64,000 nucleotides of DNA, from assembly GCA_012522575.1 (NCBI GenBank), contig JAAYKE010000049.1, positions 2,445 to 66,444 on the forward strand, read 5' to 3'. Position numbers and translations under genes: made by a program. The notes under the pieces are model-generated. The model was given only the letters and a program-made list of their open reading frames with translations, did not search any database and was not told the DNA's origin. Each line of letters starts with the position of its first letter. Positions within the stretch are counted from its first letter, which is position 1. Shown piece by piece: positions 38,762 to 63,597 of this stretch. This DNA is from Armatimonadota bacterium. GTDB lineage: Bacteria; Armatimonadota; UBA5829.

Positions 38762-39277
38762 TTGGATCGAAAAAATACGATATTGTTCTATTCGACGGCA
38801 GCGGATGTGGCGGTTATAGATCAGTTGACCAAGTATCTGGCGCGGCAGAACCTCGCGTCCGGCAAGCCTGTGGAGGTGATCGCGGGTCTGCTTGACCTCC
38901 CCCTCAACTTCAACACGGGGGCTGCGTTCGGTCTGCTGCCGGATTGGGCGCCGCTGCTCATAATCATGGCCCTTGTGGCGATATTCATAATCGTAAAACT
39001 GCGCGGCGTTGGCGGCGGTTCTTTGCCTGTTTCGATTGGCCTTGGCCTGCTGCTGGGCGGTGCGATTGGCAACCTCATCGACCGCATCGCATTCCCCGCT
39101 CGCGGCGTGACCGATTTTATCGATATCCACATATTTGTTAAAGGTCAGACGCACGCCTGGCCTACTTTCAATATCGCGGATGTCGGGATAGTGGTCGGCG
39201 CGATTCTGGTTTTGTTTCACGTATATATCCTCGAAAGGATGAGAATGGATGATGGAGACACAGAGGCCGCAGATTGA
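38762..39277 (+). CDS. lspA: Lipoprotein signal peptidase (signal peptidase II)
   Basis: 'NFNTGAAFGLL', 'GNLIDR', 'FNIADVGIVVG' conserved blocks; conserved position downstream of ileS. Confidence 0.85.
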   Translation: MDRKNTILFYSTAADVAVIDQLTKYLARQNLASGKPVEVIAGLLDLPLNFNTGAAFGLLPDWAPLLIIMALVAIFIIVKLRGVGGGSLPVSIGLGLLLGGAIGNLIDRIAFPARGVTDFIDIHIFVKGQTHAWPTFNIADVGIVVGAILVLFHVYILERMRMDDGDTEAAD

Positions 39278-39752
39278 GATAGAGCCGACACCGATTGATC
39301 GAGTGGTGGATACGCTGGCGATGATAGGGCTGTTGTATATGGTGGCGATAACCGTGATCTATTATCCGCAGCTTCCGGCGACCATTCCCACGCATTTCGA
39401 TCTTGCAGGCAAAGTCGACGGCTGGGGATCAAAGTTGACCCTGTCGTTTTTGCCTGTGATAAGCGCGGTCTTTTATTTCGCTTTATCTACGATCACCCGT
39501 TTTCCGCACATATATAACTATCCCGTGCCGATAACCGCGGAGAACGTCGAGAAGCAGTATCGAATCGGAATATCGATTATGCGATGGCTGAAGATGGAGT
39601 TCGTGTGCATTTTCGCATTTCTGACTCAGCAGATAATCGCTGCGGCTCAGGTGAAACATCTTTCGATGCAGCCGTGGGTTCCGATGTTGTTTGTGGCGGC
39701 GATACTGATTACATCGGCTGTGCATATAGTGTTGGCTTATCGCGCGAAGTAG
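39249..39752 (+). CDS. DUF1648 domain membrane protein
   Basis: 'IPTHFDLAGKVDGWGSK' is the DUF1648 signature; four predicted TM helices. Confidence 0.5.
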   Translation: MMETQRPQIEIEPTPIDRVVDTLAMIGLLYMVAITVIYYPQLPATIPTHFDLAGKVDGWGSKLTLSFLPVISAVFYFALSTITRFPHIYNYPVPITAENVEKQYRIGISIMRWLKMEFVCIFAFLTQQIIAAAQVKHLSMQPWVPMLFVAAILITSAVHIVLAYRAK

Positions 39753-39761
39753 TATTGTTTC

Positions 39762-40523
39762 ATGCATAGTACCCTGTTTAAGATATTTGGATTTCCGGTG
39801 CACTCCTATGGCCTGATGATGGTCGTTGGGTTTGCGCTTGGGCTGTGGCGCGCGAGCAGAATATCGAAGAAGCGATATGGAATTGAGCCGGATCGGGTCT
39901 ATGATATGGCCCTGACGCTGCTGATCAGCGGCATAGTGGGATCGCGAATCGTATTTGTGCTCATTAACCCGGACACGGAGAGCTGGAAGGATATGCTGTC
40001 GGTGTGGCAGGGCGGACTAAGTTTCCACGGCGGGCTGATCAGCGCGATGGTTGCAGGAGCTATTTATGCGCGTATTGCGAAGCTGAATTATTGGGTTTGC
40101 GCTGATCTGTTCTCCCCTTCGCTGACGATTGGCTATGCCTGCACTCGAATCGGATGTTTTTTGAACGGCTGCTGCTATGGCGCGCCCACCAATCTGCCCT
40201 GGGGAATGAGATTCCTCGATGAAGGCTTCCTGACTCCGCCCTCTCACCCCACCCAACTCTATGCTGTCGGCGCAAATATTCTGATCCTGTGGGCGTTGAT
40301 TAGGTTGGAGAAGCTGCGCCGAAAGCCCGGTTTCGTATTTGTCGGATATGTCGGGCTTTACTCCATATACAGATTTCTGATCGAGTTTTTGCGCAGCGGA
40401 TATACCGCCAAACTGCTCGCGTTCGGGCTGACTGAGGCGCAGTGGGTAAGCCTGGCGGCCATATTAGCCTCGGCTGTTTTGATGCTCACGGTGTATCGCA
40501 ATCCCCTCAAATCTTCACAATAG
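39762..40523 (+). CDS. lgt: Prolipoprotein diacylglyceryl transferase
   Basis: 'GFPVHSYGLMMVVGFALG', 'GGLSFHGGLI', 'R.GCFLNGCCYG' Lgt signature blocks. Confidence 0.85.
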   Translation: MHSTLFKIFGFPVHSYGLMMVVGFALGLWRASRISKKRYGIEPDRVYDMALTLLISGIVGSRIVFVLINPDTESWKDMLSVWQGGLSFHGGLISAMVAGAIYARIAKLNYWVCADLFSPSLTIGYACTRIGCFLNGCCYGAPTNLPWGMRFLDEGFLTPPSHPTQLYAVGANILILWALIRLEKLRRKPGFVFVGYVGLYSIYRFLIEFLRSGYTAKLLAFGLTEAQWVSLAAILASAVLMLTVYRNPLKSSQ

Positions 40524-40723: not shown

Positions 40724-41227
40724 ATGAATGTCAGACAACGCAGACTCAACTCGGATTTCCAGGCGCTCATCGAGCTTTCCCGCGACAATCCGCTTATTGA
40801 TTTTGATATATTAAGCAACAACAAGGACAGATATGTAGTGATTTATCGATGCAGAGGTCTGCATTGGCTGCCGGGTCGTCCGCGTCCATCCGTTGCTAAT
40901 CTGCATCGTATGGAAATTTATCTTCACCTGGACTACCCGCGCCTGCCTCCGCAACTGCAGTGGCTGACCGATATTTTCCATCCCAACATCCTGCCTCCTT
41001 CGATGAACGGCGGGGTATGCATAGGCAAATGGACCCCGGCGGAATCTCTGGACAGGCTGGTGGTGCGTCTCGGGGAGATGGTGCAGTATAAAAACTATAA
41101 CACAAAGGATCCCATGAACCTGCAAGCGGCCGCTTGGGCGGAAGAGAACTCCTCGTCGCTGCCCGTAGACAACAGGCCGCTGACAAATCATTCTAACCCT
41201 TTGGACATAGGCATAGGAGCGCAATAA
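40724..41227 (+). CDS. Ubiquitin-conjugating enzyme (E2/UBC)-like protein, copy 1
   Basis: 'DIFHPNILPPSMNGGVCIGKWTPAESL' matches the UBC active site (HPN, then the catalytic Cys, then the downstream Trp/Pro); the N-terminal 'RRLNSDFQAL' matches UBC helix 1. Confidence 0.7.
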   Translation: MNVRQRRLNSDFQALIELSRDNPLIDFDILSNNKDRYVVIYRCRGLHWLPGRPRPSVANLHRMEIYLHLDYPRLPPQLQWLTDIFHPNILPPSMNGGVCIGKWTPAESLDRLVVRLGEMVQYKNYNTKDPMNLQAAAWAEENSSSLPVDNRPLTNHSNPLDIGIGAQ

Positions 41228-41228
41228 A

Positions 41229-42167
41229 ATGTCATTTCGGTGTGGAAGGTATTTGCTGTTAGTTATTTGTTTGGGTGTTTTGTTTATCAGTTGCGTGTTC
41301 GCCGACGCCAGAGATGTGGTGGATAAAGTGGGCGATGCAGTGGTAAGCATAGAATGTGATACTCCCGCCGGCGTTTCGGGAGGTTCGGGCGTATTAGTAA
41401 ACCCGGACGGCTACATTCTGACCAACGCTCACGTCATTGATAAAGCAAAAAAAGTGCGGATTAAAATGACGGATGAGAAGCAGTTGAGCGCGAAGGTGGT
41501 GGCTAAAGACAACGAAAATGACCTTGCGATCATCCGCATCAATATCCGAAACCTGCCGGTGGCGGTTATCGGCAACGCGAAGAACGCCAAATCCGGGGAC
41601 AGCGTGGTTGCGATAGGCAGTCCCAAAGGGCTGGATCATACCGTCACCAGCGGGATTGTATCCAAAAGCGACAGAGTAATAAACGGACGCCATTATATTC
41701 AAACCGACGCAGCCCTCAACGAAGGCAACAGCGGTGGCCCGTTGCTGAACGAAAATGGGGAAATTATTGGCATCAATACAATGATTCATAAGAATGCCAA
41801 TCAACTTGGGTTTGCGATTCCCATAAATACGGCTTATGAACTGCTGAACAAAAATAATGTGGCTGTGCTCACGCCGCTGGATAATGAAGAACTTGCAAAG
41901 ACCAAATTGCCAGCCAACAAGACAGAGGGAGCAGGCAGACCATCGACCAAAAAGCCGGGCTGGATTTTATATGTGATTTTGGGAGTGGTTGCGGCGGCTG
42001 TTGCAGCAACCGTTGTGATACTGATTAGAAAGCGCAAAGCGCGAAAGCGGCAGGGAGGTAATGAGGGAGCGCTGGATATCACCCTGCATCCAAAGCTGGC
42101 ACAGGCTCAGCCGGCTGGCCAGGATAACGCCGACGACGGCGATGATTTGGAAATAGAACTGAAATAG
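41229..42167 (+). CDS. Membrane-anchored trypsin-like (S1/HtrA-type, no PDZ) serine protease with an acidic C-terminal tail
   Basis: 'ILTNAHVI' (His), 'NDLAIIRI' (Asp), 'GNSGGPLLN' (Ser) triad blocks; TM helix 'WILYVILGVVAAAVAATVVILI'; ends '...DDGDDLEIELK'; the start lies 1 nt after the E2 stop. Confidence 0.7.
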   Translation: MSFRCGRYLLLVICLGVLFISCVFADARDVVDKVGDAVVSIECDTPAGVSGGSGVLVNPDGYILTNAHVIDKAKKVRIKMTDEKQLSAKVVAKDNENDLAIIRINIRNLPVAVIGNAKNAKSGDSVVAIGSPKGLDHTVTSGIVSKSDRVINGRHYIQTDAALNEGNSGGPLLNENGEIIGINTMIHKNANQLGFAIPINTAYELLNKNNVAVLTPLDNEELAKTKLPANKTEGAGRPSTKKPGWILYVILGVVAAAVAATVVILIRKRKARKRQGGNEGALDITLHPKLAQAQPAGQDNADDGDDLEIELK

Positions 42168-42192
42168 AAACAGAGAGGAGATACACAAGATT

Positions 42193-42462
42193 ATGGGAAA
42201 AGTGGATGTCACGATTATTGACGCTACGGGAAACAAGGAGCAGCAGGCCTCGCTGCCGGACGATGCGCCGGTGAGGAGAATTATCGCCAGGCTGACGGAG
42301 ATGATGCAACTGCCGGCAACCGATCCGGGCGGACAGATGTTGAGCTACAAGTTTCAGCATAAGGCGTCCGGCACGCAGCTTACCGATGATCAGACCCTTG
42401 CCGATGCAAACGTAAAAGATGGGGACGTGCTGCGGATGCTGCCGGAGATTACTGCAGGATGA
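42193..42462 (+). CDS. Ubiquitin-like beta-grasp protein (Ubl) with a C-terminal Ala-Gly
   Basis: 89 aa; ends '...LRMLPEITAG*'; the stop overlaps the E1 start (ATGA); RBS 'GAGAGGAG' upstream. Confidence 0.6.
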   Translation: MGKVDVTIIDATGNKEQQASLPDDAPVRRIIARLTEMMQLPATDPGGQMLSYKFQHKASGTQLTDDQTLADANVKDGDVLRMLPEITAG

Positions 42463-43730
42463 TCGACGATACAGATGATCTCGGCATTGAACTGATCGGC
42501 GACGACGCCGTTGCGCCGGATGCCCAACAGCCGAAACAGGCGGACGAACAAAAGTTGGTGTCAACCGAGGAGGAAGAGGATCGCTACAGCCGTTTCCGAC
42601 TGATTCCGTGGTGGGATCAGGAGTTGCTTAAACGGACGCGCGTGCTGGTAGTTGGAGCGGGTGCGCTCGGCAATGAGATTCTCAAAAATCTTGCCCTGCT
42701 GGGAGTCGGCAAGATATTTCTGATCGATTTGGATCGGATAGAGAACTCCAACTTGTCCAGGTCGGTGCTTTACAGGCTGTCGGATGAGGGATCCGGCAAA
42801 GCGGAAGTAGCTGCGCGGTCGGCGATGGAGATCAACCCTGACATTACCGTGCATCCGTTTATGGGCAATATCGTGCACGATGTGGGCCTGGGTGTGTTCA
42901 GATCAATGGATGTGGTGATCTGCGGACTGGATAATCGAGAGGCGAGGCTGTGGGTCAACCAGTGCTGCTGGCGGGTGAACAGGCCGTGGATCGACGGAGC
43001 TATAGAGGTATTGCACGGCATAGTGCGAGTGTTCGTCCCGCCTGATGGCGCGTGTTATGAATGCACAATGAACGACACCGACTATGAGATGCTGCGGCGG
43101 CGAAAGTCCTGCGCTCTGCTGACCAGAGAACAGATGCTGGAAGGCAAAGTGCCGACCACGCCAACCATATCATCGGTAATCGCGGGAATACAGTGTCAGG
43201 AGGCCGTAAAACTGGTTCACGATCGCCCTGAGCTACCGGTGCTTGAGGGAAAGGGATACTTCTTCAACGGATTGACCCATGACTCATTTGTGGTGAATTA
43301 TACCCGCAAGCAGGATTGTTTGAGCCATGAGACCTTTGAAAACATCAAGGAGATGGACTGGCGGGCGCAGGACCTGACCTTGAGGCAGGCTCTCGAACAT
43401 ATTCGAGCGGATCTCGGAGACGAAGCGGCTCTGGAGCTTAACCGCGAAATTGTATATGAGATGACCTGTGAGCAATGCGATGTCTCGGTTCCGACTTCGA
43501 TGCTGCTGGGGAAGATGACCGAAGCCGATGCCGCTTGCCCGAAATGCCGCGAAGTGATGGCTTTGGAGATGTGTCACAGCGTCTCCGGAGACGAGGCGTT
43601 TGTTGACAAGACCTTCGCCGAAATAGGGCTGCCCGCATTTGACATAGTTGCGGGCAGGTGCGGGATGGAAGAAAGGTACTATGAGTTGAGCGGTGACAGG
43701 GCAAAGATGCTCGGCGACATCGCGGATTGA
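42459..43730 (+). CDS. E1-like ubiquitin-activating enzyme (ThiF/MoeB/HesA family) with a C-terminal CxxC zinc module
   Basis: 'RVLVVGAGALGNEILKNLALLGVGKIFLIDLDRIENSNLSRS' adenylation Rossmann fold; C-terminal 'CYEC', 'CEQC', 'CPKC' pairs; N-terminal acidic 'DDTDDLGIELIGDD'. Confidence 0.8.
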   Translation: MIDDTDDLGIELIGDDAVAPDAQQPKQADEQKLVSTEEEEDRYSRFRLIPWWDQELLKRTRVLVVGAGALGNEILKNLALLGVGKIFLIDLDRIENSNLSRSVLYRLSDEGSGKAEVAARSAMEINPDITVHPFMGNIVHDVGLGVFRSMDVVICGLDNREARLWVNQCCWRVNRPWIDGAIEVLHGIVRVFVPPDGACYECTMNDTDYEMLRRRKSCALLTREQMLEGKVPTTPTISSVIAGIQCQEAVKLVHDRPELPVLEGKGYFFNGLTHDSFVVNYTRKQDCLSHETFENIKEMDWRAQDLTLRQALEHIRADLGDEAALELNREIVYEMTCEQCDVSVPTSMLLGKMTEADAACPKCREVMALEMCHSVSGDEAFVDKTFAEIGLPAFDIVAGRCGMEERYYELSGDRAKMLGDIAD

Positions 43731-44707
43731 GCAAAAAAAGAACGGGTGGGAAGGCTATGACTGCAGAGGATAGACACAATGATGCAGATATTGAGCTTAT
43801 TGTAACCGAAAATCGGCCCAGCGGCGCGATGGATTGTCCGGACATCCGGATCGACCCTGAAGTAGATAAGCAGATACAGACCTTCGCAAAAACAGACACC
43901 GGCAAAGAGTTGGGAGGAGTGCTGCTTGGGGAGCTTATCGCTGATTCCGTAATCCCGCAGGTGAGAATCAAGGCCGCTATTGAGGCCAAACATACGGAAG
44001 CCGTTCAGACAAGCGTCAAATTCACCCACGATACCTGGGACGACATCAACCGGGTCAAGGATGAAAAATATCCGGATATGCGGATAGTCGGGTGGTTCCA
44101 CACTCATCCCGGCTTTGGCATATTCCTGTCGCGGTGGGATATGTTTATCCAGGAAAACTTCTTTAATCTGCCGTGGCAGGTGGCCTATGTGGTCGATCCT
44201 GTCGGTAAAACGAGCGGGTTTTTCCGGTGGGAAAACGGCAAAGTTGCTCAGGTCGGCAAGAAAAAAGAAATTGCGCCTCCTATTGAGGTCACGCTTCCGA
44301 AAGTGGAAAAAGTCGGCAGGTCATTTAACTGGGGAACGGTATTCTCTGTTGTCTTGAACGTTGCGCTGATTGCGGCCGTGGTATATCTTGGCCTGTTCAA
44401 GCCTCCGGAGGTTCGGGTTGAGGAGAAAATCGTAACCGAAGAAGCGCCGGTTAACGTTGAGCGGCAATCGACAACTGAGATGACCGAGCAAGCGCAGACG
44501 TGGACGGAATATGTTGTGCAGAGGGGGGATTCTTTCTGGTCGATAGCCAAGAATTGTTATGGAGAGGGTGAATTATATACCGCTATCCAACTCTTCAACA
44601 ATATGCCCGATAAAAAGGTACTGCACACAGGGGAGCGCTTGCGGCTGCCGTCCAAAGAGATCGCCGTTACGATGCTTGACAAGAGGATCAGACCAGGGAT
44701 TGATTAA
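43727..44707 (+). CDS. JAB/MPN (JAMM) metalloprotease fused to a TM segment and a C-terminal LysM domain
   Basis: 'E..AV' glutamate plus 'WFHTHPGFGIFLSRWD' (HxHx7Sx2D); TM helix 'VFSVVLNVALIAAVVYLGLF'; LysM 'YVVQRGDSFWSIAKNCYG....AIQLFNNMPDKKVLHTGERLRLP'. Confidence 0.75.
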   Translation: MSKKRTGGKAMTAEDRHNDADIELIVTENRPSGAMDCPDIRIDPEVDKQIQTFAKTDTGKELGGVLLGELIADSVIPQVRIKAAIEAKHTEAVQTSVKFTHDTWDDINRVKDEKYPDMRIVGWFHTHPGFGIFLSRWDMFIQENFFNLPWQVAYVVDPVGKTSGFFRWENGKVAQVGKKKEIAPPIEVTLPKVEKVGRSFNWGTVFSVVLNVALIAAVVYLGLFKPPEVRVEEKIVTEEAPVNVERQSTTEMTEQAQTWTEYVVQRGDSFWSIAKNCYGEGELYTAIQLFNNMPDKKVLHTGERLRLPSKEIAVTMLDKRIRPGID

Positions 44708-45301
44708 ATGCGTTCGTCTGTCGGCAAAACGTGTCCATATTGCCAGTATCCCATCAAGCCGGATGAGCCGGTAATCGAGTGCAGTCATTGCGGCATGCCG
44801 CATCATAGGGCTTGCTGGGAATATAACCGCGGGTGTACGACTTATGGCTGCAGCGGAGTGCAGCGGCATGGCAGATTGCCCGTTGCAGGCAATCAGCAGG
44901 GGTCTGATCATATCGACCTTACAGACATAATGCACGAGCCGGAACAGCCGACTCCATACTATCCGCAACAACCGGGATACCAGCCCGCGGAATCGGAAGC
45001 TCCGCTTTTAGCGACATCGAACTCATTAGCGGGCAGCGGAGGAGTGATTGGAGCGATAATCGGAGGATTTATCGGTCTGAGCGGCGGGTGCGCAGGCTGC
45101 ATTCCCGGCGCAATTTTCGGTTTTATCATAGGCGCCTTGATCGGCGGGTTTATGCTCTATGGCATTATAATAACTGTGACCAGCGGGATTGGGTATATGT
45201 TCGGATCAGTCGGCGGGCAGGACGCGGCTATCGGCGGAGCGGCAATCGGGCTGATAGTCGGAGTCATAATAATCGTAATCGGTTGCTGCAAGCAGGCATG
45301 A
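44708..45301 (+). CDS. PHD/RING-like binuclear zinc-finger protein (paralog 1) with a glycine-zipper membrane C-terminus; candidate E3
   Basis: N-terminal 'CPYCQYPIKPDEPVIECSHCGMPHHRACWEYNRGCTTYGC' (C-x2-C-x12-C-x2-C-x3-HH-x2-C-x6-C-x4-C); the C-terminal half is GxxxG-rich and hydrophobic. Confidence 0.55.
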   Translation: MRSSVGKTCPYCQYPIKPDEPVIECSHCGMPHHRACWEYNRGCTTYGCSGVQRHGRLPVAGNQQGSDHIDLTDIMHEPEQPTPYYPQQPGYQPAESEAPLLATSNSLAGSGGVIGAIIGGFIGLSGGCAGCIPGAIFGFIIGALIGGFMLYGIIITVTSGIGYMFGSVGGQDAAIGGAAIGLIVGVIIIVIGCCKQA

Positions 45302-45339
45302 CGATTCATACAAGATCAAGATAGCAGGAGGTTTGATCT

Positions 45340-45939
45340 ATGGCTAATACAGTGGCCGGACCCGCAATAGCCGGCAAGACATGTCCGTTTTGTCAGACTC
45401 CGATAAAACCAAATGAACCTGTGCACATTTGTGACCAGTGCAATATCCCGCATCACCAGGATTGCTGGCGGGAAAATGGCGGCTGCACGACTTTCGGGTG
45501 CAGGGGAGCCAATGCAGCACGCCCAATCATCCCGCAACGAGCTTACGACGATCACTCTCAACCAGTCCAACAGCAGCCCTATTTTCAACCAAATCAGCAA
45601 CCCGGATACGGTAATCAATATCAACAACATTATCAATATGCGCCCGATGTGCCGCCTGAAATAATGGGCAAGCTCAACTGGGGAGCATTTCTTTTGCCTT
45701 TCTTTTGGGCGATAGCCCACAATGTGTGGATCGGACTCTTAATACTGGTTCCCTACGTTGGATGGGTTATGCATTTTGTTCTGCTGTTCAAGGGCAACGA
45801 ATGGGCGTGGAGAAATCGCAGATTCCAGAGCGTTCAACATTTCAACGAAGTGCAAAATGCCTGGGTGATAGCGGGACTCATATTGTTCTTCGGGTCGATA
45901 GTGTTCGTTTTTATATTAATGTCACTGGCGTACGCTTAG
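45340..45939 (+). CDS. PHD/RING-like zinc-finger membrane protein (paralog 2); candidate E3
   Basis: 'CPFCQTPIKPNEPVHICDQCNIPHHQDCWRENGGCTTFGC' has the same ligand spacing; a Gln/Pro/Tyr-rich linker; two or three C-terminal TM helices. Confidence 0.55.
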   Translation: MANTVAGPAIAGKTCPFCQTPIKPNEPVHICDQCNIPHHQDCWRENGGCTTFGCRGANAARPIIPQRAYDDHSQPVQQQPYFQPNQQPGYGNQYQQHYQYAPDVPPEIMGKLNWGAFLLPFFWAIAHNVWIGLLILVPYVGWVMHFVLLFKGNEWAWRNRRFQSVQHFNEVQNAWVIAGLILFFGSIVFVFILMSLAYA

Positions 45940-45962
45940 TTTAGTCAAGTTAGCTGAAATCC

Positions 45963-46847
45963 ATGACCGGCAAGCTCTGTCCATATTGTCAAAATCGTAT
46001 TACGTCGGGGAGCGCGGTTACTGCCTGCCCTGCCTGCAACACTCCGCATCATAGCGAGTGCTGGAACTACAATGGCGGGTGCACGACTTTTGGGTGCCGA
46101 TATATGCCCGGAGCAAGTGCGCATTCTTCAGCACAAGCATACGATGCATACGATGACCTGGATATAGAGCTTTATCCTCCGGGTGGCGGGTATCCGCCTT
46201 CGCGAAGCGGTCATGTGGAGCAGCAACACTACCGGCAGAGCCAGCCCAGGTCAAAGAATTCGTGGTTGTGGGCGATTATTTCGATAACTGCGTTTCTGGG
46301 CATGGTCGCCATTATGATAAGCACGACATTCAATAACCCGACGAATGCATCTTACATGAAACGCGCCATAAAATGCGTCAATCAAGAGCAGTATGAAACT
46401 GCAAAAACCTACTGTAATCTGGCTATTGAACAGGACCCCGAGTGTATGGAGGCATATTATCTGAAGGGCACATTGCTGCTGGAGCTTTGCAATTGGCGGC
46501 ACAACAACATTGAGGTGTGGATGAACCAGGCCAGACACGGTAACACTGAGCGGTTCGATGCGGCAGATGAGTGCTTTAGGCAATGTATCAGGTTCGCGCC
46601 AACTGATACGACTGAATATAACAAATATCTGAAGCTGGATAACTCTGAGATTGTGAGCCGGGCGTATGTCCACCTGGCGATGACGGCAACTCTGCGGATG
46701 CTGGCTAATTATGATGCCAATCGTATGAACGACGCGCTACTATGGGCCAGAATCGCGCGGCAATATCTTAACAAGGTGACATATTACCACCTTGGAACGG
46801 AGTATTACGAACTGGCAGATGCCCTGCAAAAGTTTGTGCCCGGTTAA
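45963..46847 (+). CDS. PHD/RING-like zinc-finger membrane protein (paralog 3) with a C-terminal TPR-like helical domain; candidate E3
   Basis: 'CPYCQNRITSGSAVTACPACNTPHHSECWNYNGGCTTFGC'; one TM helix 'WLWAIISITAFLGMVAIMI'; TPR-like 'YETAKTYCNLAIEQDPECMEAYYLKGTLLLE'. Confidence 0.55.
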   Translation: MTGKLCPYCQNRITSGSAVTACPACNTPHHSECWNYNGGCTTFGCRYMPGASAHSSAQAYDAYDDLDIELYPPGGGYPPSRSGHVEQQHYRQSQPRSKNSWLWAIISITAFLGMVAIMISTTFNNPTNASYMKRAIKCVNQEQYETAKTYCNLAIEQDPECMEAYYLKGTLLLELCNWRHNNIEVWMNQARHGNTERFDAADECFRQCIRFAPTDTTEYNKYLKLDNSEIVSRAYVHLAMTATLRMLANYDANRMNDALLWARIARQYLNKVTYYHLGTEYYELADALQKFVPG

Positions 46848-46897
46848 GATACGCAGCGGCTTAATATACTTGATCAACACAACTGGAGACGATATAT

Positions 46898-47467
46898 ATG
46901 AACCCTAGAATGATGCGTCTGAATGCCGATTACGAGAAGATCAGGACGGAATTTCTCGGCCATAGATATGTTACGGTCGAACCGATGGGTTCGCTGCCGC
47001 CTGAGAGATATAGAATCACATATCGAGTGCCGGGGCTGCGATGGGATAGCTTCGGCAACAGGCCGATTGTCGTCAACGAACATGTCGCGGAGATATATCT
47101 TCACGCTGATTACCCGCGTCAAACGCCAAAAGCTACCCTCAAAACCCCGATTTGGCACCCGAACTTTGGCACATATATCTGCATTGGAGATCACTGGGCG
47201 GCAGGAGAGACGCTGGTGGATATAATCGTGCAGATTGGGGATATGATTCAATATAAGTCCTACAATCCCAAGAGTCCGCTCAATGCAAATGCCGCGATAT
47301 GGTCGATGCAAAACCAGCATCTCTTCCCGGTAGGGACGATCGATATCCTGCAGCCGGAACCGGAGGTGGAGTTTGGCGGCGCAAGCGCAGATGTTGAGGA
47401 GGATGACCTTGGAATTGTGCTGGGGCCAAGCTCCGATAACGATGATCTGGAGATAGAATTCAAATGA
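46898..47467 (+). CDS. E2/UBC-like protein, copy 2, with an acidic C-terminal tail
   Basis: 'PIWHPNFGTYICIGDHWAAGETL' HPN...C motif; N-terminal 'MRLNADYEKI'; ends '...DNDDLEIEFK'; RBS 'GGAGACG' upstream. Confidence 0.7.
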   Translation: MNPRMMRLNADYEKIRTEFLGHRYVTVEPMGSLPPERYRITYRVPGLRWDSFGNRPIVVNEHVAEIYLHADYPRQTPKATLKTPIWHPNFGTYICIGDHWAAGETLVDIIVQIGDMIQYKSYNPKSPLNANAAIWSMQNQHLFPVGTIDILQPEPEVEFGGASADVEEDDLGIVLGPSSDNDDLEIEFK

Positions 47468-48231
47468 CACGGCCAGATGACGCCGGCAATCAAAAAATTG
47501 AAGTGACACTGGACGAGCCGGTCGATACGCCTGAGCAGGGATCAAATAGACCGCAAGGGGAATCGGAAGGCGCGATTCCACCGGGAGCCGTTGAGGTCTA
47601 TATAGACAAGGCTGTGCTTGAATCGACCTGGGAGCATGTGCTCACAAACAGGCGCACCGAGCTTGGCGGAGTGCTGATTGGGCGGCGCAGGGAAGCGGAC
47701 GGAACCTTTACGCACATCACAAACTGGCTTGACGCGAGGCACACGACCACCACCTCCGGCAGCCTGACATTCACACACGATGCCTGGGCCGATATAGCGC
47801 AACGAATGAGCGATATGGATCCGGATGACAAAATTGTCGGATGGTATCATTCTCATCCCGGCCACGGCGTTTTTATGAGCGGCCAGGATAGATTTATCCA
47901 TAATAACTTCTTTGCCAATGACTGGCAGTGTGCGCTGGTGATTGACCCAATTAAAAACGACAGGGGATTGTTTCAATTAGTCAACGGACAGATTGTGCGC
48001 ACCGGGTATTGGTGTGTGCCCGACAAGCCGGTGTATGTGACTCAACAAGATAGTAAGCCCGTTGCCGTGGAAACGCCGCCGCAACAGGATGGGTTGCACG
48101 AAGCGGCAAGCGATTTTCTGGAAGCGGGAGATCATATCGCATCGGGAATAGAGAAATTCGTAAAATATTCTGCACAGCGCATACGCAATTCTAAAGGCCC
48201 GCTTGGCCGGAACATCGACAAAAAGGCGTAA
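47464..48231 (+). CDS. JAB/MPN (JAMM) metalloprotease, copy 2 (soluble)
   Basis: 'ELGGVLIG' glutamate plus 'WYHSHPGHGVFMSGQD' (HxHx7Sx2D); the start overlaps the E2 copy-2 stop (ATGA). Confidence 0.75.
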   Translation: MTRPDDAGNQKIEVTLDEPVDTPEQGSNRPQGESEGAIPPGAVEVYIDKAVLESTWEHVLTNRRTELGGVLIGRRREADGTFTHITNWLDARHTTTTSGSLTFTHDAWADIAQRMSDMDPDDKIVGWYHSHPGHGVFMSGQDRFIHNNFFANDWQCALVIDPIKNDRGLFQLVNGQIVRTGYWCVPDKPVYVTQQDSKPVAVETPPQQDGLHEAASDFLEAGDHIASGIEKFVKYSAQRIRNSKGPLGRNIDKKA

Positions 48232-48258
48232 GACATCGCGCTATAAGGAGCGACTGAG

Positions 48259-49344
48259 ATGAGCAACGACAAAATTGAAATCAGCTTTGACGATGAGGAC
48301 GAGCAGCCGAAGCCCCGGGAAAAGAAACTGATCATTACGAGCGATGACCTGCTCAACGTGCCCGACCCGCAGCCGCTTGCCGCACAGAAGCCTGTGGGGT
48401 TTGATGCGCCTGCGGATTCATATATGCAGTATCAGAAGAAACCATCGGCCTCAGCGGTGTCCGGTCACAGTATTATGCAGGGAGCAATCGCCGGGCTTAT
48501 TGGCGGTTTTTTGGCGTGGGCTGTCACTGAGCCTTTATTTGGGGACAATGTGGCCAGCAGCAATTTTGTCAGTATCATCGTTAAAATGGGTTTTTTCGGC
48601 GGACTGATCGGAGGGCTGATTGGCGGTTGCCTGGGAGCTGCGGATGGAGTTGTTTCAGGAGTTGCTGAAAAGGCGTTCAAGGCCGGCGCAATTGGCTTGG
48701 GGATCGGAATGGGCGGCGGTTTTCTGGGCGGAGTTTTTGGGCAGATTGTCTATGGCGCTCTGCTGCAATCGGGAGAACCCGGACTTGGCACATATATGGT
48801 GGCGCGAACAATCGGCTGGTCGGTGGTGGGTGTGTTCGTTGGGTTGGGACAGGGAGTAGGACGAGGCTCCGGCAAGCGCGTGACTAACGGTTTGCTGGGA
48901 GGTCTGGCTGGCGGTTTTATTGCAGGAATTCTGTTTGACCCAATTTCGGTTTTATTTGCTACCGGATTGTTGAGCCGACTCTTTGGAATCACGATACTCG
49001 GCGCTGCTGCCGGGCTGGCGGTCGGATTGGTGGAGGAAATGCGAAAGCAAGCCTGGTTATCTATAGTCAAAGGGCCGCTTGCGGGCAAGCAGTTTATTTT
49101 ATATGAACAAAGAACGAGAATTGGCAGTTCTCCCAAGTGTGAAATTAGTCTGGTAAAAGACCCGCAGGTGATGCCGGAACACATTGCCATAGATAATCAC
49201 GGCAGCAGTTTCAGCCTCAGCGCTCTTATGGGACAGGCGCTGGTGGACGGACGACCGGTACATCAAACCCGGCTGCAGGCGGGGAATATGATCACACTCG
49301 GTTCGACGTCGCTGCTCTTTGAGGAGAAGGCGATCGGTCAGTAG
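48259..49344 (+). CDS. Membrane protein with a glycine-zipper TM region and a C-terminal FHA-like domain
   Basis: N-terminal acidic 'KIEISFDDEDEQ'; GxxxG-rich hydrophobic core 'GAIAGLIGGFLAWAV...GGLIGGLIGGCLGAADG...GIGMGGGFLGGVFG'; C-terminal 'GKQFILYEQRTRIGSSPKCEISLVKDPQVMPEHIAID.....L.....ALVDGRPV....L..GNMITLGSTSLLFE' matches an FHA fold pattern. Confidence 0.55.
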   Translation: MSNDKIEISFDDEDEQPKPREKKLIITSDDLLNVPDPQPLAAQKPVGFDAPADSYMQYQKKPSASAVSGHSIMQGAIAGLIGGFLAWAVTEPLFGDNVASSNFVSIIVKMGFFGGLIGGLIGGCLGAADGVVSGVAEKAFKAGAIGLGIGMGGGFLGGVFGQIVYGALLQSGEPGLGTYMVARTIGWSVVGVFVGLGQGVGRGSGKRVTNGLLGGLAGGFIAGILFDPISVLFATGLLSRLFGITILGAAAGLAVGLVEEMRKQAWLSIVKGPLAGKQFILYEQRTRIGSSPKCEISLVKDPQVMPEHIAIDNHGSSFSLSALMGQALVDGRPVHQTRLQAGNMITLGSTSLLFEEKAIGQ

Positions 49345-49380
49345 ATATCTGACTAAGGAGCGATAAGGCCATTAACGCAG

Positions 49381-49500
49381 TCATCGGGAAAATCTGCCCT
49401 TTTTGCCAGACTCCTATAAAATCGGAGGACGATTGGGATTCGGATGACGACGACGATGGTTGGGATTCCGAGGAATATGATGATGACTGGGATTACTGAT
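49381..49500 (+). pseudogene. Fragment of a fourth zinc-finger paralog fused to an acidic Trp-rich tail (no ATG start)
   Basis: The in-frame translation '...GKICPFCQTPIKSEDDWDSDDDDDGWDSEEYDDDWDY*' carries only the first CxxC of the paralog motif; the upstream in-frame stop leaves no canonical start. Confidence 0.4.
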
Positions 49501-49526
49501 TTGGTTATAGGGTTGGGAGGGCTAAT

Positions 49527-50102
49527 ATGATCGCGCCTAGGCGCATTTTGGGCCTTATCTGCGGGGTGTGCGCGGTGATATTGGTCGTGGGATGCAGCGG
49601 TGGTAATTCATCCGCGCCTGCCGAGGGAAATCGGCCCCAGTCGCTGTTTAGCGCAGATTTGGCCGAACGACTGGACAGACACGATGCGCAAACCGGGGAT
49701 GTGCAGGCGAGTTTGATCTGGAATAACTACAACGACCTCGACTTGCACATTATTGATCCGAATGATGAACGGATATATTTCGCGCACAAACGGGCCAGGT
49801 CAGGAGGGGAACTCGATGTGGATATGAACGCGCGCGGTCGGGAATCTAATGAGCCGGTCGAAAACATCTATTTCCCGCAAGGCGGAGCGCCCGCCGGACG
49901 CTACAGGGTCTACGTTCATTACTATGCCAAGCACGACTCCGATAACCTCACCCCGTTCAGATGCGAAGTGCTGGTCAAAGATGAGGTGCATAAATTCTCC
50001 GGGGAGATGTCCAAAGGCGATCCGATCCGACTGATTTATGAATTCACACTGGAAGGCAAGCAGGAAAAACCAATTCCACTGCTGTTTTCACCGAGAAGAT
50101 AG
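49527..50102 (+). CDS. Lipoprotein of unknown function
   Basis: 'MIAPRRILGLICGVCAVILVVGCSGG' lipobox; conserved-looking 'LIWNNYNDLDLHIIDPNDERIYF....GGELDVDMN' beta-rich domain; RBS 'GGGAGGG' upstream. Confidence 0.5.
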   Translation: MIAPRRILGLICGVCAVILVVGCSGGNSSAPAEGNRPQSLFSADLAERLDRHDAQTGDVQASLIWNNYNDLDLHIIDPNDERIYFAHKRARSGGELDVDMNARGRESNEPVENIYFPQGGAPAGRYRVYVHYYAKHDSDNLTPFRCEVLVKDEVHKFSGEMSKGDPIRLIYEFTLEGKQEKPIPLLFSPRR

Positions 50103-51066: not shown

Positions 51067-51144
51067 TGGTCGGGGCGGAGAGATTTGAACTCTCGGCCTC
51101 CAGTTCCCAAAACTGGCGCGCTAACCAAGCTGCGCTACGCCCCG
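51067..51144 (-). tRNA. tRNA-Pro (anticodon TGG)
   Basis: A manually folded reverse-strand cloverleaf: acceptor CGGGGCG/CGCCCCG, D-arm GCGC-AGCTTGGTTA-GCGC, anticodon stem CCAGT/ACTGG with loop TTTGGGA, T-arm GAGAG-TTCAAAT-CTCTC, discriminator A plus CCA. Confidence 0.85.
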
Positions 51145-53755: not shown

Positions 53756-54646
53756 CTAATCAGTAGTTGTCGGACTAGCAGAGCCGTAGTAGTATGAATT
53801 GCGATGCCACGGACACCGGCAAGGCGTATTTGCCCTATGTGTAGTTCCGCCGGCATACGTGTCGTGCAATCCTCGTATTTTTAGGATCTCTTTCTTTGGA
53901 ATCCACTTAGTGTGGCCATCTGCGAACGAACAGGTCGTGCCTTCCCAGTGAATATCGCCGGGATCGTCGAATGACGCGTAGCTCCACCACTGGAAGAACC
54001 CGTCGTTCTGGCCATTCAAGCCGGCTTTTGTGCCGCGTTTTTCGTGTATCAGGAACATAATCTGCCCGGACCGGCCTGCCGTAGCAGCCGCAAGTTTAAC
54101 GGTAAACGGCGCAGCTTGCTTGTCGCAGAGGTCCTCATTGACCGCATAGCTGACCCCGAAACCTGCCGGCAAAGTAGACGCCTGATATTCAGTCGCTCCT
54201 TTAGGCCAGGATGCCTTATCCATCCAACCTATTCTGCGGCCGCCATAATAGCAAGGAATGTTCATATCCGATGGGCAGTTGAACAAGGCTATGCCTCTGG
54301 CATATCCGCCGATAGCCAGCGATCCTTTGCGGGGGTCACAAGGCACTATGCTTGTGTCTCCGCCGGCAACTCCTCTGTCGAAGGTGGAGCCTGTCCACTC
54401 TATCGTTGCTCGACCGGTGTAGTTCGCCATTCGGCTTCTGGAGGAAACCGGCAGAAATCCGTCATTGTCATCAGCATAGCTGAACATCGCCAAAGTGAGC
54501 TGTTTGAGGTTGGAGGTGCAGGTAGCCTGTCTGCCGCGCTCTTTCGCGTTCAGGAACACAGGAAAAAGAATGGCTGCTAAGATAGCAATAATTGCAATTA
54601 CAACCAACAGCTCAATGAGTGTGAATCCTCGCTTGGTCATTATCAA
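53756..54646 (-). CDS. Prepilin-type N-terminal cleavage/methylation domain protein with DUF1559 (H-X9-DG family pseudopilin)
   Basis: '[26 protein letters not shown]' class III signal peptide; 'CTSNLKQL..A...[10 protein letters not shown]' DUF1559-like. Confidence 0.7.
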
Positions 54647-61643: not shown

Positions 61644-62273
61644 ATGATTGAAGGGTTATACATAATAACAGACGAGGAACTGCATCCCGGCAGGACGCAT
61701 TTGATGATCGCGGAAGCTGCGATCGCAGGCGGAGCCGGATTGATTCAGATTCGAGACAAACACGCCTCCGACCGAGACCTATATGAGGCGGCAATGGCTG
61801 TTCGCGAGGCGTGCACTCGAGCAGGTGCGCTGCTTTTTGTAAACGATCGAGTGCATATTGCCGCTGCGGTCGGGGCTGATGGGGTAAATATAGGCCAGAG
61901 TGACCTGCCTGTTGCGGCAGTCAGAACGATACTGGGTAAGAATGCCGTCATAGGAGTCTCTTGCGATTGCCTTAAGCAGGCTCTGCAAGCTGAAAAGGAC
62001 GGTGCGGACTACATCGGGTATGGCCCTGTTTTTCCTACCTCGACCAAGCTCGATGCAGGGCCAGTGTCCGGCTTGGAGACGCTCAGAAAAGTATGTGATT
62101 CGGTTAACATTCCGGTGGTAGCGATTGGCGGAATCAATGCGGACAATATCGATCAGGTCGCAGCCGCGGGCGCACAATGCGCGGCAGTGATCTCTGCAAT
62201 CGTATGCGCTGACGATATGAAACAAGCGACTATCGAATTAATAAGGAGGTATGGGACCAAACGACAGGCGTAA
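61644..62273 (+). CDS. thiE: Thiamine-phosphate synthase
   Basis: 'GLYIITD', 'LIQIRDK', 'LFVNDRVHIAAAVGADGVNIGQSDLP', 'VAIGGIN' ThiE blocks. Confidence 0.85.
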   Translation: MIEGLYIITDEELHPGRTHLMIAEAAIAGGAGLIQIRDKHASDRDLYEAAMAVREACTRAGALLFVNDRVHIAAAVGADGVNIGQSDLPVAAVRTILGKNAVIGVSCDCLKQALQAEKDGADYIGYGPVFPTSTKLDAGPVSGLETLRKVCDSVNIPVVAIGGINADNIDQVAAAGAQCAAVISAIVCADDMKQATIELIRRYGTKRQA

Positions 62274-62295
62274 AGCAACTGTCCGTTGATCCCTG

Positions 62296-63597
62296 TTGCC
62301 TGAAATGACACAGTTGGAAGCCGCCCGCAAGGGCAGAATAACTGAGGAGATGGAGCGGGTCGCTCAGAGCGAAAACGTCAACATCGATGTGCTGGTCAAA
62401 CACGTCGCAGCCGGCAGCGTGGTGATTCCGAAAAATGTGAACCGCGACCTGAAGCGCGTCGAGGCCGTCGGGTTGGGGTTGCGCACAAAGGTCAACGCCA
62501 ATATCGGCACATCCGCAACGTTTCCGGATATAAAAGATGAACTGGCGAAACTGCAGGCCGCCCTCGATGCAGGCGCGGATGCCGTGATGGACCTATCGAC
62601 CGGCGGCAATTTGACCGATATTCGCAAGGCCATATTGGAGAACTGCGATGTGGCTCTGGGGACCGTGCCTATCTATGAATGCGCGGTCGATGTGGTCGGG
62701 GAGCACGGCGGGATAGTCAAAATAACCGGCGATGACCTGATGGGCACTATCGAGCGACAGGCCAGGCAGGGAATTGACTTTATGACGCTGCACTGCGGCG
62801 TCACGCTGGAGAGCATATCCCGTATGCGTGATCAGGGCAGATTGATGGACGTCACCAGCAGAGGCGGAGCTTTTCTGGTCAACTGGATTTTGGCCAATGG
62901 AAAAGAGAACCCGCTGTATGAACGGTATGACGACGTATTGGCGATCGCCAGAAAATATGATATCACCCTCAGCCTTGGGGATGGTTTCAGGCCGGGATGC
63001 CTGGCGGACGCGACCGACCGAGCGCAGGTTCAAGAGCTTATAATCCTTGGTGAACTGGTGAAGCGCGCCAGGGAAGCCGGCGTGCAGGCGATGGTCGAAG
63101 GGCCGGGACATGTGCCTCTTAACCAGATTGCCGCTAATATGCAGATTCAGAAAAGTCTGTGCGAGGGCGCGCCGTTTTATGTGCTTGGGCCGCTGGTGAC
63201 GGATGTGGCCCCGGGTTATGATCATATAACCTCGGCTATTGGCGGCGCGATAGCAGCGATGAATGGCGCGGATTTTATCTGCTATGTCACTCCGAGCGAA
63301 CACCTCGGCCTGCCCACTGTGCAAGACGTTAAAGAAGGCGTCATCGCCGCAAGAATCGCCGGACACGCTGCCGATATTGTAAAGGGTTTGCCCGGAGCGG
63401 CCGAGTGGGACAGACAGATGGCGATCGCCCGCAAGGATCGAGACTGGGAAAAACAACTTGAACTGGCCATCGACCCGGTTAAGGCTCGCGAAGTCTATAA
63501 TAAGCGATCCGGCGATGTTGACGAAGTTTGCTCAATGTGCGGTGAGTTGTGCGCGATGAAAGTTGTTGAAGAATACCTGGGCAAAACGAAGATTTGA
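62296..63597 (+). CDS. thiC: Phosphomethylpyrimidine synthase
   Basis: Short-form ThiC: 'DLSTGGN', 'TVPIYE', 'MTLHCGVT', C-terminal 'CSMCGELCAMK' Fe-S motif (CxxCxxxxC). Confidence 0.9.
   Translation: MPEMTQLEAARKGRITEEMERVAQSENVNIDVLVKHVAAGSVVIPKNVNRDLKRVEAVGLGLRTKVNANIGTSATFPDIKDELAKLQAALDAGADAVMDLSTGGNLTDIRKAILENCDVALGTVPIYECAVDVVGEHGGIVKITGDDLMGTIERQARQGIDFMTLHCGVTLESISRMRDQGRLMDVTSRGGAFLVNWILANGKENPLYERYDDVLAIARKYDITLSLGDGFRPGCLADATDRAQVQELIILGELVKRAREAGVQAMVEGPGHVPLNQIAANMQIQKSLCEGAPFYVLGPLVTDVAPGYDHITSAIGGAIAAMNGADFICYVTPSEHLGLPTVQDVKEGVIAARIAGHAADIVKGLPGAAEWDRQMAIARKDRDWEKQLELAIDPVKAREVYNKRSGDVDEVCSMCGELCAMKVVEEYLGKTKI

Follow-up and report, generated by a model that had tools for sequence, protein, structure and literature searches.

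Results

Gene content and layout of the cassette

We analysed a 64,000-nucleotide stretch (hereafter the window) of an Armatimonadota genome (lineage UBA5829, assembly GCA_012522575.1, contig JAAYKE010000049.1), in which positions 40724-50102 hold a compact block of genes whose products resemble the parts of a ubiquitin-like conjugation system: a ubiquitin-like modifier (Ubl), an activating enzyme (E1), two conjugating enzymes (E2a and E2b), two JAB-family metalloproteases, three proteins with RING-type zinc fingers and transmembrane (TM) segments, and several accessory proteins (Table 1). As a preliminary description made from the sequence had proposed, the block is a single + strand unit with all of its open reading frames (ORFs) present, although the ORF listing gives 12 consecutive genes where that description had counted eleven. 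Packing is dense, with intergenic distances of -4 to +50 nt and one exception of 182 nt ahead of the lipoprotein gene. ATGA overlaps join the Ubl gene to that of E1 and the E2b gene to that of JABb, whereas the third such overlap that had been described, between E1 and the first JAB gene, is a TTGA (TTG start at 43727), the JAB gene alternatively beginning at ATG 43757. On the left the block is set off by a 200-nt gap after lgt, and a PdaC/DUF3298 gene of convergent orientation borders it on the right; its base composition is the same as that of the flanks. Because a scan of the block for consensus promoters and terminators returned no more sites than shuffled sequence did, the operon limits are defined by spacing and strand only. 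Profile searches placed every ORF in the family previously named for it, including the trypsin-like protease, LysM, FHA and lipoprotein assignments, which Pfam profiles, hydropathy and a lipobox bear out.

Table 1. Features of the cassette, with positions in the window. All Pfam family matches lie above the gathering score (the curated cutoff) except DUF2135 of the lipoprotein.
Feature	Position	Strand	Evidence
E2a, UBC-fold conjugating enzyme, 167 aa	40724-41227	+	Pfam UQ_con 1.1e-10
HtrA/DegS-like serine protease without PDZ	41229-42167	+	Pfam Trypsin_2 3e-34
Ubl, YukD-type beta-grasp modifier, 89 aa	42193-42462	+	Pfam YukD 2e-14
E1 activating enzyme, 423 aa	42459-43730	+	Pfam ThiF 2e-54
JAB-TM-LysM, Rpn11-like metalloprotease	43727-44707	+	Pfam JAB 6e-11, LysM 1e-6
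RINGa	44708-45301	+	Pfam Prok-RING_1 2.7e-10
RINGb	45340-45939	+	Pfam Prok-RING_1 2e-9
RINGc-TPR	45963-46847	+	Pfam Prok-RING_1 7e-11, TPR_1 1e-6
E2b, UBC-fold conjugating enzyme, 189 aa	46898-47467	+	Pfam UQ_con 7e-9
JABb, soluble Rpn11-like metalloprotease, 255 aa	47464-48231	+	Pfam JAB 9e-12, Prok-JAB 6e-8
Gly-zipper multi-TM/FHA protein	48259-49344	+	Pfam Yop-YscD_cpl 3.6e-12, FHA 5e-6
RING gene remnant, decayed	49371-49499	+	read from sequence, compared with intact orthologue
Lipoprotein, lipobox VVGC, 191 aa	49527-50102	+	hydropathy, lipobox; DUF2135 2e-4 (below cutoff)

Relatives were gathered by scanning species-representative genomes with the E1, and the resulting 80 loci were annotated with the window proteins. 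These loci lie in Armatimonadota (77-83% identity), in many Clostridia (Oscillospiraceae, Acutalibacteraceae, Lachnospiraceae and Syntrophomonadaceae), in Acidobacteriota, in Planctomycetota and in other groups, and JAB, RING, E1, E2 and Ubl genes are co-linear in most of them. Since the cassette recurs in four phyla (Armatimonadota, Clostridia, Acidobacteriota, Planctomycetota), its gene set is far more than chance; the search of public genomes for conserved synteny that had been suggested finds it across phyla, and the class is widespread in soil and gut bacteria.

Modifier, activating enzyme and conjugating enzymes

In the window the modifier ends ...LRMLPEITAG-stop, with the Gly already exposed, and a tail of the form ...LRLQPEITAG is near-invariant among ~75 homologues across phyla, which agrees with the earlier call of an 89-aa Ubl ending in Ala-Gly, as does the YukD match. 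Exactly at AG terminate 36 of 79 Ubl ORFs, and most of the others carry 1-9 further residues (for example TAG-GAKR, as in L012 or L016, and TAG-VYNAVI). We read this pattern as the signature of a conjugated modifier whose Gly would be exposed partly by processing, and the Rpn11-like peptidases of the cassette could mature such extended precursors. Further Pfam matches of the Ubl are to Rad60-SLD (2e-4) and ubiquitin (1e-3), and its sequence matches in the PDB are mostly ubiquitin, polyubiquitin and NEDD8. Together with E1 it is the best-conserved component between phyla (median identity 56-57% for Ubl and 48-56% for E1).

E1 consists, in order, of an N-terminal acidic motif (described below), an adenylation domain, a crossover loop with Cys218 (codon 43110-43112) and a C-terminal domain of ~130 aa with CxxC...CxxC. 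Its GxGxxG, its Asp/Asn/Arg adenylation residues and Cys218 are kept in 80 of 80 homologues, among which D90, D92, N98, R101, D158, R163, C199/C202 and C287 are invariant or nearly so; this conservation and the ThiF profile match sustain the earlier identification of a ThiF-family E1 with GxGxxG and CxxC pairs. By position and conservation, Cys218 is the predicted catalytic residue. The best solved relatives are UBA7, UBA1, UBA3 and SAE2 (1e-28 to 1e-22), all of which outscore MoeB and ThiF.

Both E2s are of the classical type. E2a has HPN at residues 86-88 and its catalytic Cys at 99 (codon 41018-41020), both invariant in 14 of 14 orthologues; its solved relatives in a sequence search of the PDB, led by 6zm3 (4e-9) and followed by Ubc4, Rad6 and Ubc13, are eukaryotic E2s, and in every clade that possesses E2a its gene stands immediately 5' of the protease gene. 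E2b has HPN at residues 87-89 and Cys95 (codon 47180-47182), kept in 64 of 65 relatives (the remaining one being gapped), and falls into 204 clusters at 90% identity, some of them named 'ubiquitin-conjugating enzyme E2' by NCBI. Sequence searches find Ubc4/UbcH5, Rad6, Ubc13 and Ube2K among solved structures as E2 relatives, and an AlphaFold model of E2b from a 60-sequence alignment (mean predicted local distance difference test score, pLDDT, 83.4; core residues 1-155 confident) has Ube2K, Ubc13 and UbcH5 as its best Foldseek matches (E ~1e-7, probability 1.0), while the last 34 residues are predicted to be disordered (pLDDT <50). Two UQ_con matches, the conserved HPN and Cys, and the fold match of E2b speak for the two HPN...C enzymes that had been proposed. 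Judged by such comparisons, the cassette enzymes appear closest to eukaryotic and archaeal ubiquitin machinery, not to bacterial sulfur-transfer enzymes.

JAB peptidases and accessory proteins

The segment HTHPGFGIFLSRWD of the JAB-LysM protein matches HxHx7Sx2D, a signature present in 106 of 106 JAB relatives, and with the two Pfam JAB matches this upholds the claim of two JAMM deubiquitinases. The best solved relatives of JAB-LysM are Rpn11 (3e-9), then an Rpn11-like 6fju chain, AMSH and CSN5, and those of JABb are 6fjv, a '26S proteasome regulatory subunit N11-like protein' (1.6e-8), then Rpn11, AMSH and CSN5; we take 6fjv to be the Caldiarchaeum Rpn11-like protein. Hydropathy and charge place the peptidase domain of JAB-LysM in the cytosol, followed by one TM helix (residues 205-223) and a peptidoglycan-binding LysM domain outside.

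The protease matches NCBIfam degP_htrA at 2e-60, below the cutoff and with the protease domain alone, and keeps GNSGGP in 51 of 53 relatives. From hydropathy and flanking K/R residues, it has a signal or anchor segment (residues 9-27), a catalytic domain outside, a TM helix (residues 246-264) and, on the cytosolic side, a tail of 48 aa. In the FHA protein, hydropathy indicates several glycine-zipper TM segments, with the FHA domain at the C-terminus in the cytosol. The Clostridial E2 proteins of ~620 aa (one of 641 aa), which join UQ_con and FHA in one chain, align with this protein across ~253 residues; this E2-TM/FHA fusion argues that E2 works at the membrane. Hydropathy leaves only Ubl, E1, E2a, E2b and JABb as soluble products. 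The lipoprotein adjoins the cassette in only two of the 80 loci, those of the closest relatives, designated L001 and L003, so its membership is uncertain. It strongly matches two phage protein families of unknown function in PHROG (phrog_1735, 2.8e-27; phrog_23228, 1.3e-15); the same search gave no match for the E2, Ubl, RING and FHA proteins and, besides the lipoprotein, only generic E1 and LysM matches.

RING proteins and their turnover

Each RING protein of the window opens with a C4HC3 RING (ligands C-x2-C-x12-C-x2-C-x3-H(H)-x2-C-x6-C-x4-C, invariant in the alignment) that hydropathy places in the cytosol, with 1-3 hydrophobic segments after it. RINGa continues into three glycine-zipper TM segments; RINGb, listed as a hypothetical protein in an Armatimonadetes metagenome-assembled genome, continues into a 2-TM 'NWGAF...KGNEWAW' module that elsewhere stands alone or is joined to TPR domains; and in RINGc a linker with the motif YDDLDIELYPP leads to a single TM helix and then to a TPR-like domain at the C-terminus, probably outside the membrane. 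Three paralogous RING-like fingers had been described here, and the three Prok-RING_1 matches agree, the invariant ligand pattern marking the cysteine-rich N-termini as RING-type and not as generic ribbons. The C4HC3 pattern occurs in 101 of 106 homologues, and in 79 of these 101 the RING is N-terminal. A fold search lists HRD1 and RNF13, both membrane-anchored RING ubiquitin ligases (E3s), among the structural matches.

The family is large: among 1.84 billion cluster representatives, a RING profile matched 9341 with E<=1e-3, of which 1860 reached E<=1e-10, and NCBI labels some relatives 'RING finger protein'. Across it, the RING is joined to varied membrane modules (glycine zipper, 2-TM NWGAF, TM-TPR and CD225-like). 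The Prok-RING_1 proteins P0154-P0156 and P0269 have up to four matched RING stretches per chain, and in P0007 and P0010 the RING is joined to a CD225/dispanin-type membrane domain (PF04505).

RING genes also turn over between close relatives. The three RING domains are the sole substantial DNA repeat of the block (68-76% identity over 63 nt), and L001 and L003 hold five RING genes each. The first of these (L001 12281-12856) is absent from the window, and another survives as the remnant listed in Table 1, which reads ...IGKICPFCQTPIKSEDDW...DDDWDY-stop, has no canonical start codon and, internally deleted, preserves no more of the protein than its first zinc knuckle and acidic tail. Its intact 184-aa orthologue lies at 17466-18020 of L001 and also in L003 (Prok-RING_1 1e-12).

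A shared acidic motif

Most components carry, in disordered ends or linkers, an acidic beta-strand motif of the form phi-[DE]-phi-[DE]-phi, such as DDLEIELK. In E1 it lies near the N-terminus (residues 5-14, TDDLGIELIG; motif peptide TDDLGIELIGDD), and in most E1s it stands just ahead of a conserved EDRYSR at the protein start. The acidic, disordered C-terminal tail of E2b has three copies (PEVEF, DDLGIVL and DDLEIEFK, the last within DNDDLEIEFK), which are conserved across 60 homologues; in the AlphaFold model this tail stays undocked from the E2b core. The protease tail contains ALDITL and ends in ...DDGDDLEIELK, and the same motif is conserved at the very end of the protease in Armatimonadota, Syntrophomonadaceae and Clostridia. 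Further instances are DADIELIV in JAB-LysM, KIEVTLDE in JABb, HIDLTDI in RINGa, DDLDIELY in RINGc and an N-terminal KIEISFDDEDE in the FHA protein, and other genomes likewise have the motif at the extreme C-terminus of protease and E2 (for example DIDIELK, DFEIDILE and DDLDIELL).

When one fixed definition was applied to the proteins of other genomes with flanking ORFs as background, the motif was present in 74% of proteases, 71% of E2b proteins, 39% of JAB, 28% of E1 and 16% of RING proteins, as against 5% of the flanking ORFs, and in 0 of 73 Ubls. The window itself holds 5 instances in 3015 cassette residues versus 2 in 15,773 residues of other genes, for a pattern that was defined post hoc. 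A minimal cassette in Anoxynatronum, with no FHA or protease gene within 10 kb, has the motif on all four enzymes, and because the motif persists there its receptor must be sought among the five core proteins. Of these, the Ubl alone never carries the motif, and we therefore infer by elimination that the motif is probably a Ubl-docking peptide. Two other explanations were rejected: the FHA domain as a universal motif receptor, given the persistence of the motif in that minimal cassette, and the terminal Lys as a Ubl acceptor, given a last residue that varies (K/R/E/H/L/N/Q).

Gene order and genomic context

Gene order differs between groups, running protease-Ubl-E1-JAB-GlyFHA-RING-E2 in Acidobacteriaceae, RING-Ubl-E1-E2(~620 aa)-protease-JAB-RING-JAB in Clostridia and, in minimal form, Ubl-E1-E2-JAB-RING in Anoxynatronum. 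Cultured carriers include Anoxynatronum sibiricum (with the five-gene cassette), Massiliimalia massiliensis, Lachnospiraceae MC2017 and Acidobacteriaceae ZG23-2. Eleven Acidobacteriaceae loci (e.g. L071 13737-14767) have a GYF_2-domain membrane protein between the FHA and RING/E2 genes, with a DUF2752 protein additionally inserted in 7 of the 11, and Clostridial cassettes often include a double-zinc-ribbon membrane protein (e.g. L011 3406-4197).

In the window the cassette has GH94, heparinase, gidA/gidB, rmlD, ileS, lspA and lgt genes on one side and holA, rluD and a histidine kinase gene on the other. Directly 5' of it, at 38762-40523, lspA and lgt follow ileS with a DUF1648 gene between them. 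The left flank (ileS-lspA-lgt) is syntenic with L001 and L003 and the right flank is not; throughout the relatives, flanks are common to close relatives only. An Rfam search returned two tRNAs only. A tRNA-Pro(tgg) gene at 51067-51144 (- strand), ~1 kb beyond the right end of the cassette, points its 3' end towards the block; a search for an attachment-site (att)-like direct repeat joining this gene to the left border found none, there is no GC island signature, and a genomic-island origin in this genome was dropped. A gene at 53756-54646 (- strand), unrelated to the cassette, encodes a protein with a prepilin-type N-terminal methylation motif and DUF1559, of a kind typical of Armatimonadota and of genomes of the Planctomycetota-Verrucomicrobiota-Chlamydiota (PVC) type. 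The genes thiE and thiC, unlinked to the cassette E1, lie at 61644-63597, 12 kb 3' of the cassette.

Clostridial loci have other neighbours. Genes for tyrosine recombinases (phage-type integrases) or serine recombinases lie just 5' of the cassette in several, and 9 loci have XRE helix-turn-helix genes and 9 have ImmA/IrrE (Peptidase_M78) genes, a context that suggests carriage on integrative elements with a damage- or induction-responsive switch. Mobile or XRE neighbours were noted in L013, L014, L025, L030, L033, L036 and L046 among others, example neighbour genes being L013 4380-5507, L036 262-2010, L025 6272-6829 and L015 1764-2441.

Discussion

Proposed mechanism and biological role

We consider it likely that the cassette is a complete ubiquitin-like conjugation system acting on the cytosolic side of the cell membrane. 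E1 would adenylate the exposed C-terminal Gly of the Ubl (...EITAG) and then hold the modifier as a thioester on Cys218, from which it would be handed to Cys99 of E2a or Cys95 of E2b. The three RING-TM proteins would act as adaptor E3s that place the charged E2 (E2~Ubl) near lysines of membrane-proximal targets, which may be selected through their differing membrane or outer modules (glycine zipper, 2-TM module, TPR). The two JAB peptidases would remove the Ubl and, in relatives with residues after AG, mature its precursors. The acidic peptide on E1, E2b, both JABs, RINGa, RINGc, the FHA protein and the protease tail would dock these proteins to the Ubl, and the outward parts (protease, LysM, TPR and lipoprotein) may couple the cascade to the state of the envelope. 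What the analysis documents is gene content, folds, catalytic residues, their conservation, topology from hydropathy and the enrichment of the motif; the thioester relay, the E3 activity, the partner of the motif and the biological role are deduced from these. Some observations weigh against this reading. The searchable literature yielded no biochemical evidence for any of its steps; the C-terminal 134 aa of E1, where an E1 of this class would have a ubiquitin-fold domain, have no sequence-detectable solved relative; and the definition of the acidic motif was made after viewing the window, though its enrichment was measured on other genomes.

As for the biological role, we lean slightly and tentatively towards conflict, that is, defence against invaders, hold surveillance of the envelope or of membrane proteins to be somewhat doubtful, and leave what remains to other roles. 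A part in conflict is suggested by the integrase, serine recombinase, XRE and ImmA/IrrE genes upstream of Clostridial copies, and likewise by the conservation of flanks between close relatives only, the variable number of RING genes and the one decayed RING copy. Speaking against defence are the absence of any PADLOC system match; a scan of viral contigs with E1 that found no relatives, by a method that detects close relatives only; the housekeeping neighbourhood of the cassette in this genome (ileS-lspA-lgt, holA, rluD), which shows neither a mobile-element gene nor an att repeat nor a GC shift; and the want of an evident effector-type gene (nuclease, TIR or pore toxin), unless the glycine-zipper proteins serve as such.

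The alternative that survives best, and that we still judge unlikely, keeps the same biochemistry and gives it to a resident housekeeping pathway, a counterpart of endoplasmic-reticulum-associated degradation (ERAD) for surveillance or signalling of envelope and membrane proteins, in which damage to the envelope or peptidoglycan would be signalled by the HtrA-like protease and LysM, and faulty or regulated membrane proteins would be tagged by membrane RING E3s with a tethered E2. Topology fits such a pathway, since nearly all products but Ubl, E1, E2a/E2b and JABb are membrane-anchored and protease, LysM, TPR and lipoprotein face outward, and so do the DegS/HtrA-like character of the protease, the HRD1 and RNF13 matches, and a place beside lspA and lgt in a left flank common to L001 and L003; the missing PADLOC system, and the 64-kb window free of mobile-element and defence genes, count here in its favour. 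The distribution does not fit: the cassette is patchy across phyla, its flanks differ save between close relatives, its Clostridial copies sit beside integrases, recombinases and XRE/ImmA switches, and its RING genes are gained, lost and decayed among close relatives, a turnover that core housekeeping pathways do not usually show. Nor does the cassette encode an unfoldase or degradation machine to read the tag.

It is very improbable that the cassette belongs to the BilABCD or Bub systems or to the Cap2/Cap3 branch of the cyclic-oligonucleotide-based antiphage signalling system (CBASS) and works as they do. The component types Ubl, E1, E2 and JAB are shared, and PADLOC returns weak matches, of E1 with its E1-E2 and BilD models (3.6e-20 to 2e-9) and of JABb with that for BilC (6e-3). 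These are generic, and the E2, Ubl and RING proteins match no PADLOC model, in line with the contrast to BilABCD drawn in the preliminary description. The E2s are classical HPN enzymes, neither of the BilB CEHH type nor of the His-lacking type 6d, and E1 is a single 423-aa chain in a cassette with no fused enzymes and no DUF6527 match.

Chemistry other than tagging, whether sulfur transfer, cofactor or peptide-antibiotic synthesis (ThiF/ThiS, MoeB/MoaD, MccB) or type VII-like secretion, we dismiss with equal firmness: the below-threshold NCBIfam ThiF and MoeB matches (128 bits against a cutoff of 275, and 117 against 449), MccB among the solved relatives at 5e-23, the YukD and weak EccD matches of the Ubl, the secretion-system family of the FHA match and the thiE and thiC genes 12 kb away hint at it, but eukaryotic E1s outscore MoeB and ThiF, two HPN E2s, three RINGs and two Rpn11-like peptidases have no part in such pathways, and neither the 12 genes nor the recurrent accessories of the 80 loci include ThiG/ThiH/MoaE, a rhodanese, a precursor peptide, an FtsK/EssC ATPase or a WXG100 gene. 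In type VII secretion, an FtsK/EssC ATPase and WXG100 substrates accompany the YukD-like gene (PMC1779556).

Returning to Ubl conjugation at the inner membrane face, a bolder extension, which we think rather improbable, would make the cassette a transmembrane machine in which events outside (peptidoglycan damage sensed via LysM, unfolded or foreign proteins via the protease and TPR) lead to Ubl tagging inside. One universal docking peptide would then be a forerunner of the SUMO-interacting motif (SIM), the UFM1-interacting motif (UFIM) and the LC3-interacting region (LIR), the RING-TM proteins with a tethered E2 a forerunner of ERAD/MARCH ligases, and the variable RING array a panel of exchangeable receptors for targets or signals.

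Bacterial ubiquitin-like tagging (Bil, Bub, CBASS Cap2) is an active field whose characterised systems are without E3 and have atypical E2s, and the RING class is the one that searches place closest to the eukaryotic cascade, with HPN E2s, RING E3s, Rpn11-like deubiquitinases and an E1 nearer UBA1/UBA7 than MoeB. If the RING proteins are true E3s, bacteria would possess a working E1-E2-RING relay, which would bear on the origin of membrane RING ligases and of SIM-like docking, and the abundance of the class beside integrases in gut Clostridia gives it relevance to the microbiome. Cultured carriers, residues to mutate, precursor Ubls and a candidate docking peptide now make the class testable.

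Comparison with known systems

The cassette is not new in kind, having already been predicted computationally. In 2011, Burroughs, Iyer and Aravind reportedly described in Mol Biosyst a predicted operon class in which a RING of family 1, followed by TM helices, accompanies E1, a classical HPN-type E2, JAB and a YukD-like Ubl for which conjugation was proposed. Papers that cite it (PMC10557695, PMC3417536) also give accounts of that class. The RING of the window is Pfam PF14446, 'Prokaryotic RING finger family 1', and as in the 2011 class it comes with a C-terminal TM region, a YukD-like Ubl with C-terminal Gly, E1, HPN E2 and JAB; the present locus is expanded, with two E2 paralogues, two JABs, three RING genes and a remnant, and envelope-facing accessories. 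To our knowledge, the 2011 description does not include the acidic motif, the extensions that make some Ubls resemble precursors, the fusion of E2 to FHA or an abundance beside integrases in gut Clostridia. What is new here is the near-invariance of the Ubl tail with its extensions, the acidic motif, the Clostridial E2-FHA fusion, the variation in RING number with a decayed copy, and the integrase neighbours. The preliminary description was right to point to surveys of the Aravind group as prior art; the class is not special to the PVC-type bacteria that it named, being common in Clostridia, Acidobacteriota and Armatimonadota. It had also supposed that no system of this composition has been characterised experimentally, and a literature search for experimental work on the bacterial RING system, with most subscription papers outside its reach, found none; the field still calls this class uncharacterised (PMC10557695).

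The nearest characterised analogue is the reconstituted Ub/E1/E2/small-RING/Rpn11 operon of Caldiarchaeum subterraneum (Hennell James 2017, PMC5654768; Fuchs 2018, PMC6043591), in which Rpn11 processes the ubiquitin precursor (PMC6043591). Both have the same five component types in one operon with eukaryote-like sequences, and that precursor processing parallels the extended Ubls of the present class, whereas the cassette differs in its YukD-type Ubl ending in AG, membrane RING, one membrane JAB and, in Clostridia, membrane E2, as well as in its protease, FHA, LysM and TPR parts. The archaeal system reportedly relies on a small, soluble RING protein, and its modifier is nearer to ubiquitin.

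With Bil, Bub and Cap2/Cap3 the cassette shares the logic of Ubl, E1, E2 and JAB and of reversible tagging. Bil has been shown experimentally to act against phage (PMC10557695); its operons encode Ubl, E2, JAB peptidase and E1 only (PMC11601603), and BilB has a CEHH motif (PMC11354881). The E2s of the type-6d operons described in 2006 lack the classical histidine (PMC1779556), and Bub and Cap2 have E2-E1 or JAB-E1 fusions, Ubl-E2 chains being a further fused form in the Bub and Cap2/Cap3 systems and Bub operons also including a DUF6527 protease (PMC11601603). Those systems are without E3 and have non-classical E2s and, in Bub and Cap2, fused enzymes, in contrast to the three RINGs, HPN E2s and unfused proteins found here.

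Among eukaryotic systems, the membrane RING ligases with the membrane-tethered E2 Ubc6 (the RING-CH proteins MARCH and Doa10, Hrd1 and RNF13) differ from the RINGs of the cassette, whose last zinc loop is very short (C-x6-C-x4-C), and the cassette encodes no Cdc48 or proteasome partner. For the acidic motif, the closest precedent is the UFM1-interacting sequence of UBA5, which contains WGIELV (PMC5428781, 10.1101/161802, PMC10183829). Like SIM, UFIM and LIR peptides, the motif is a short strand of hydrophobic and acidic residues within disordered parts of modifier-handling enzymes, and DDLGIELIG of the cassette E1 can be set beside WGIELV of UBA5; unlike them, it is a candidate binding element deduced here by elimination, and it lies at the N-terminus of E1 and at the extreme C-terminus of E2 and protease.

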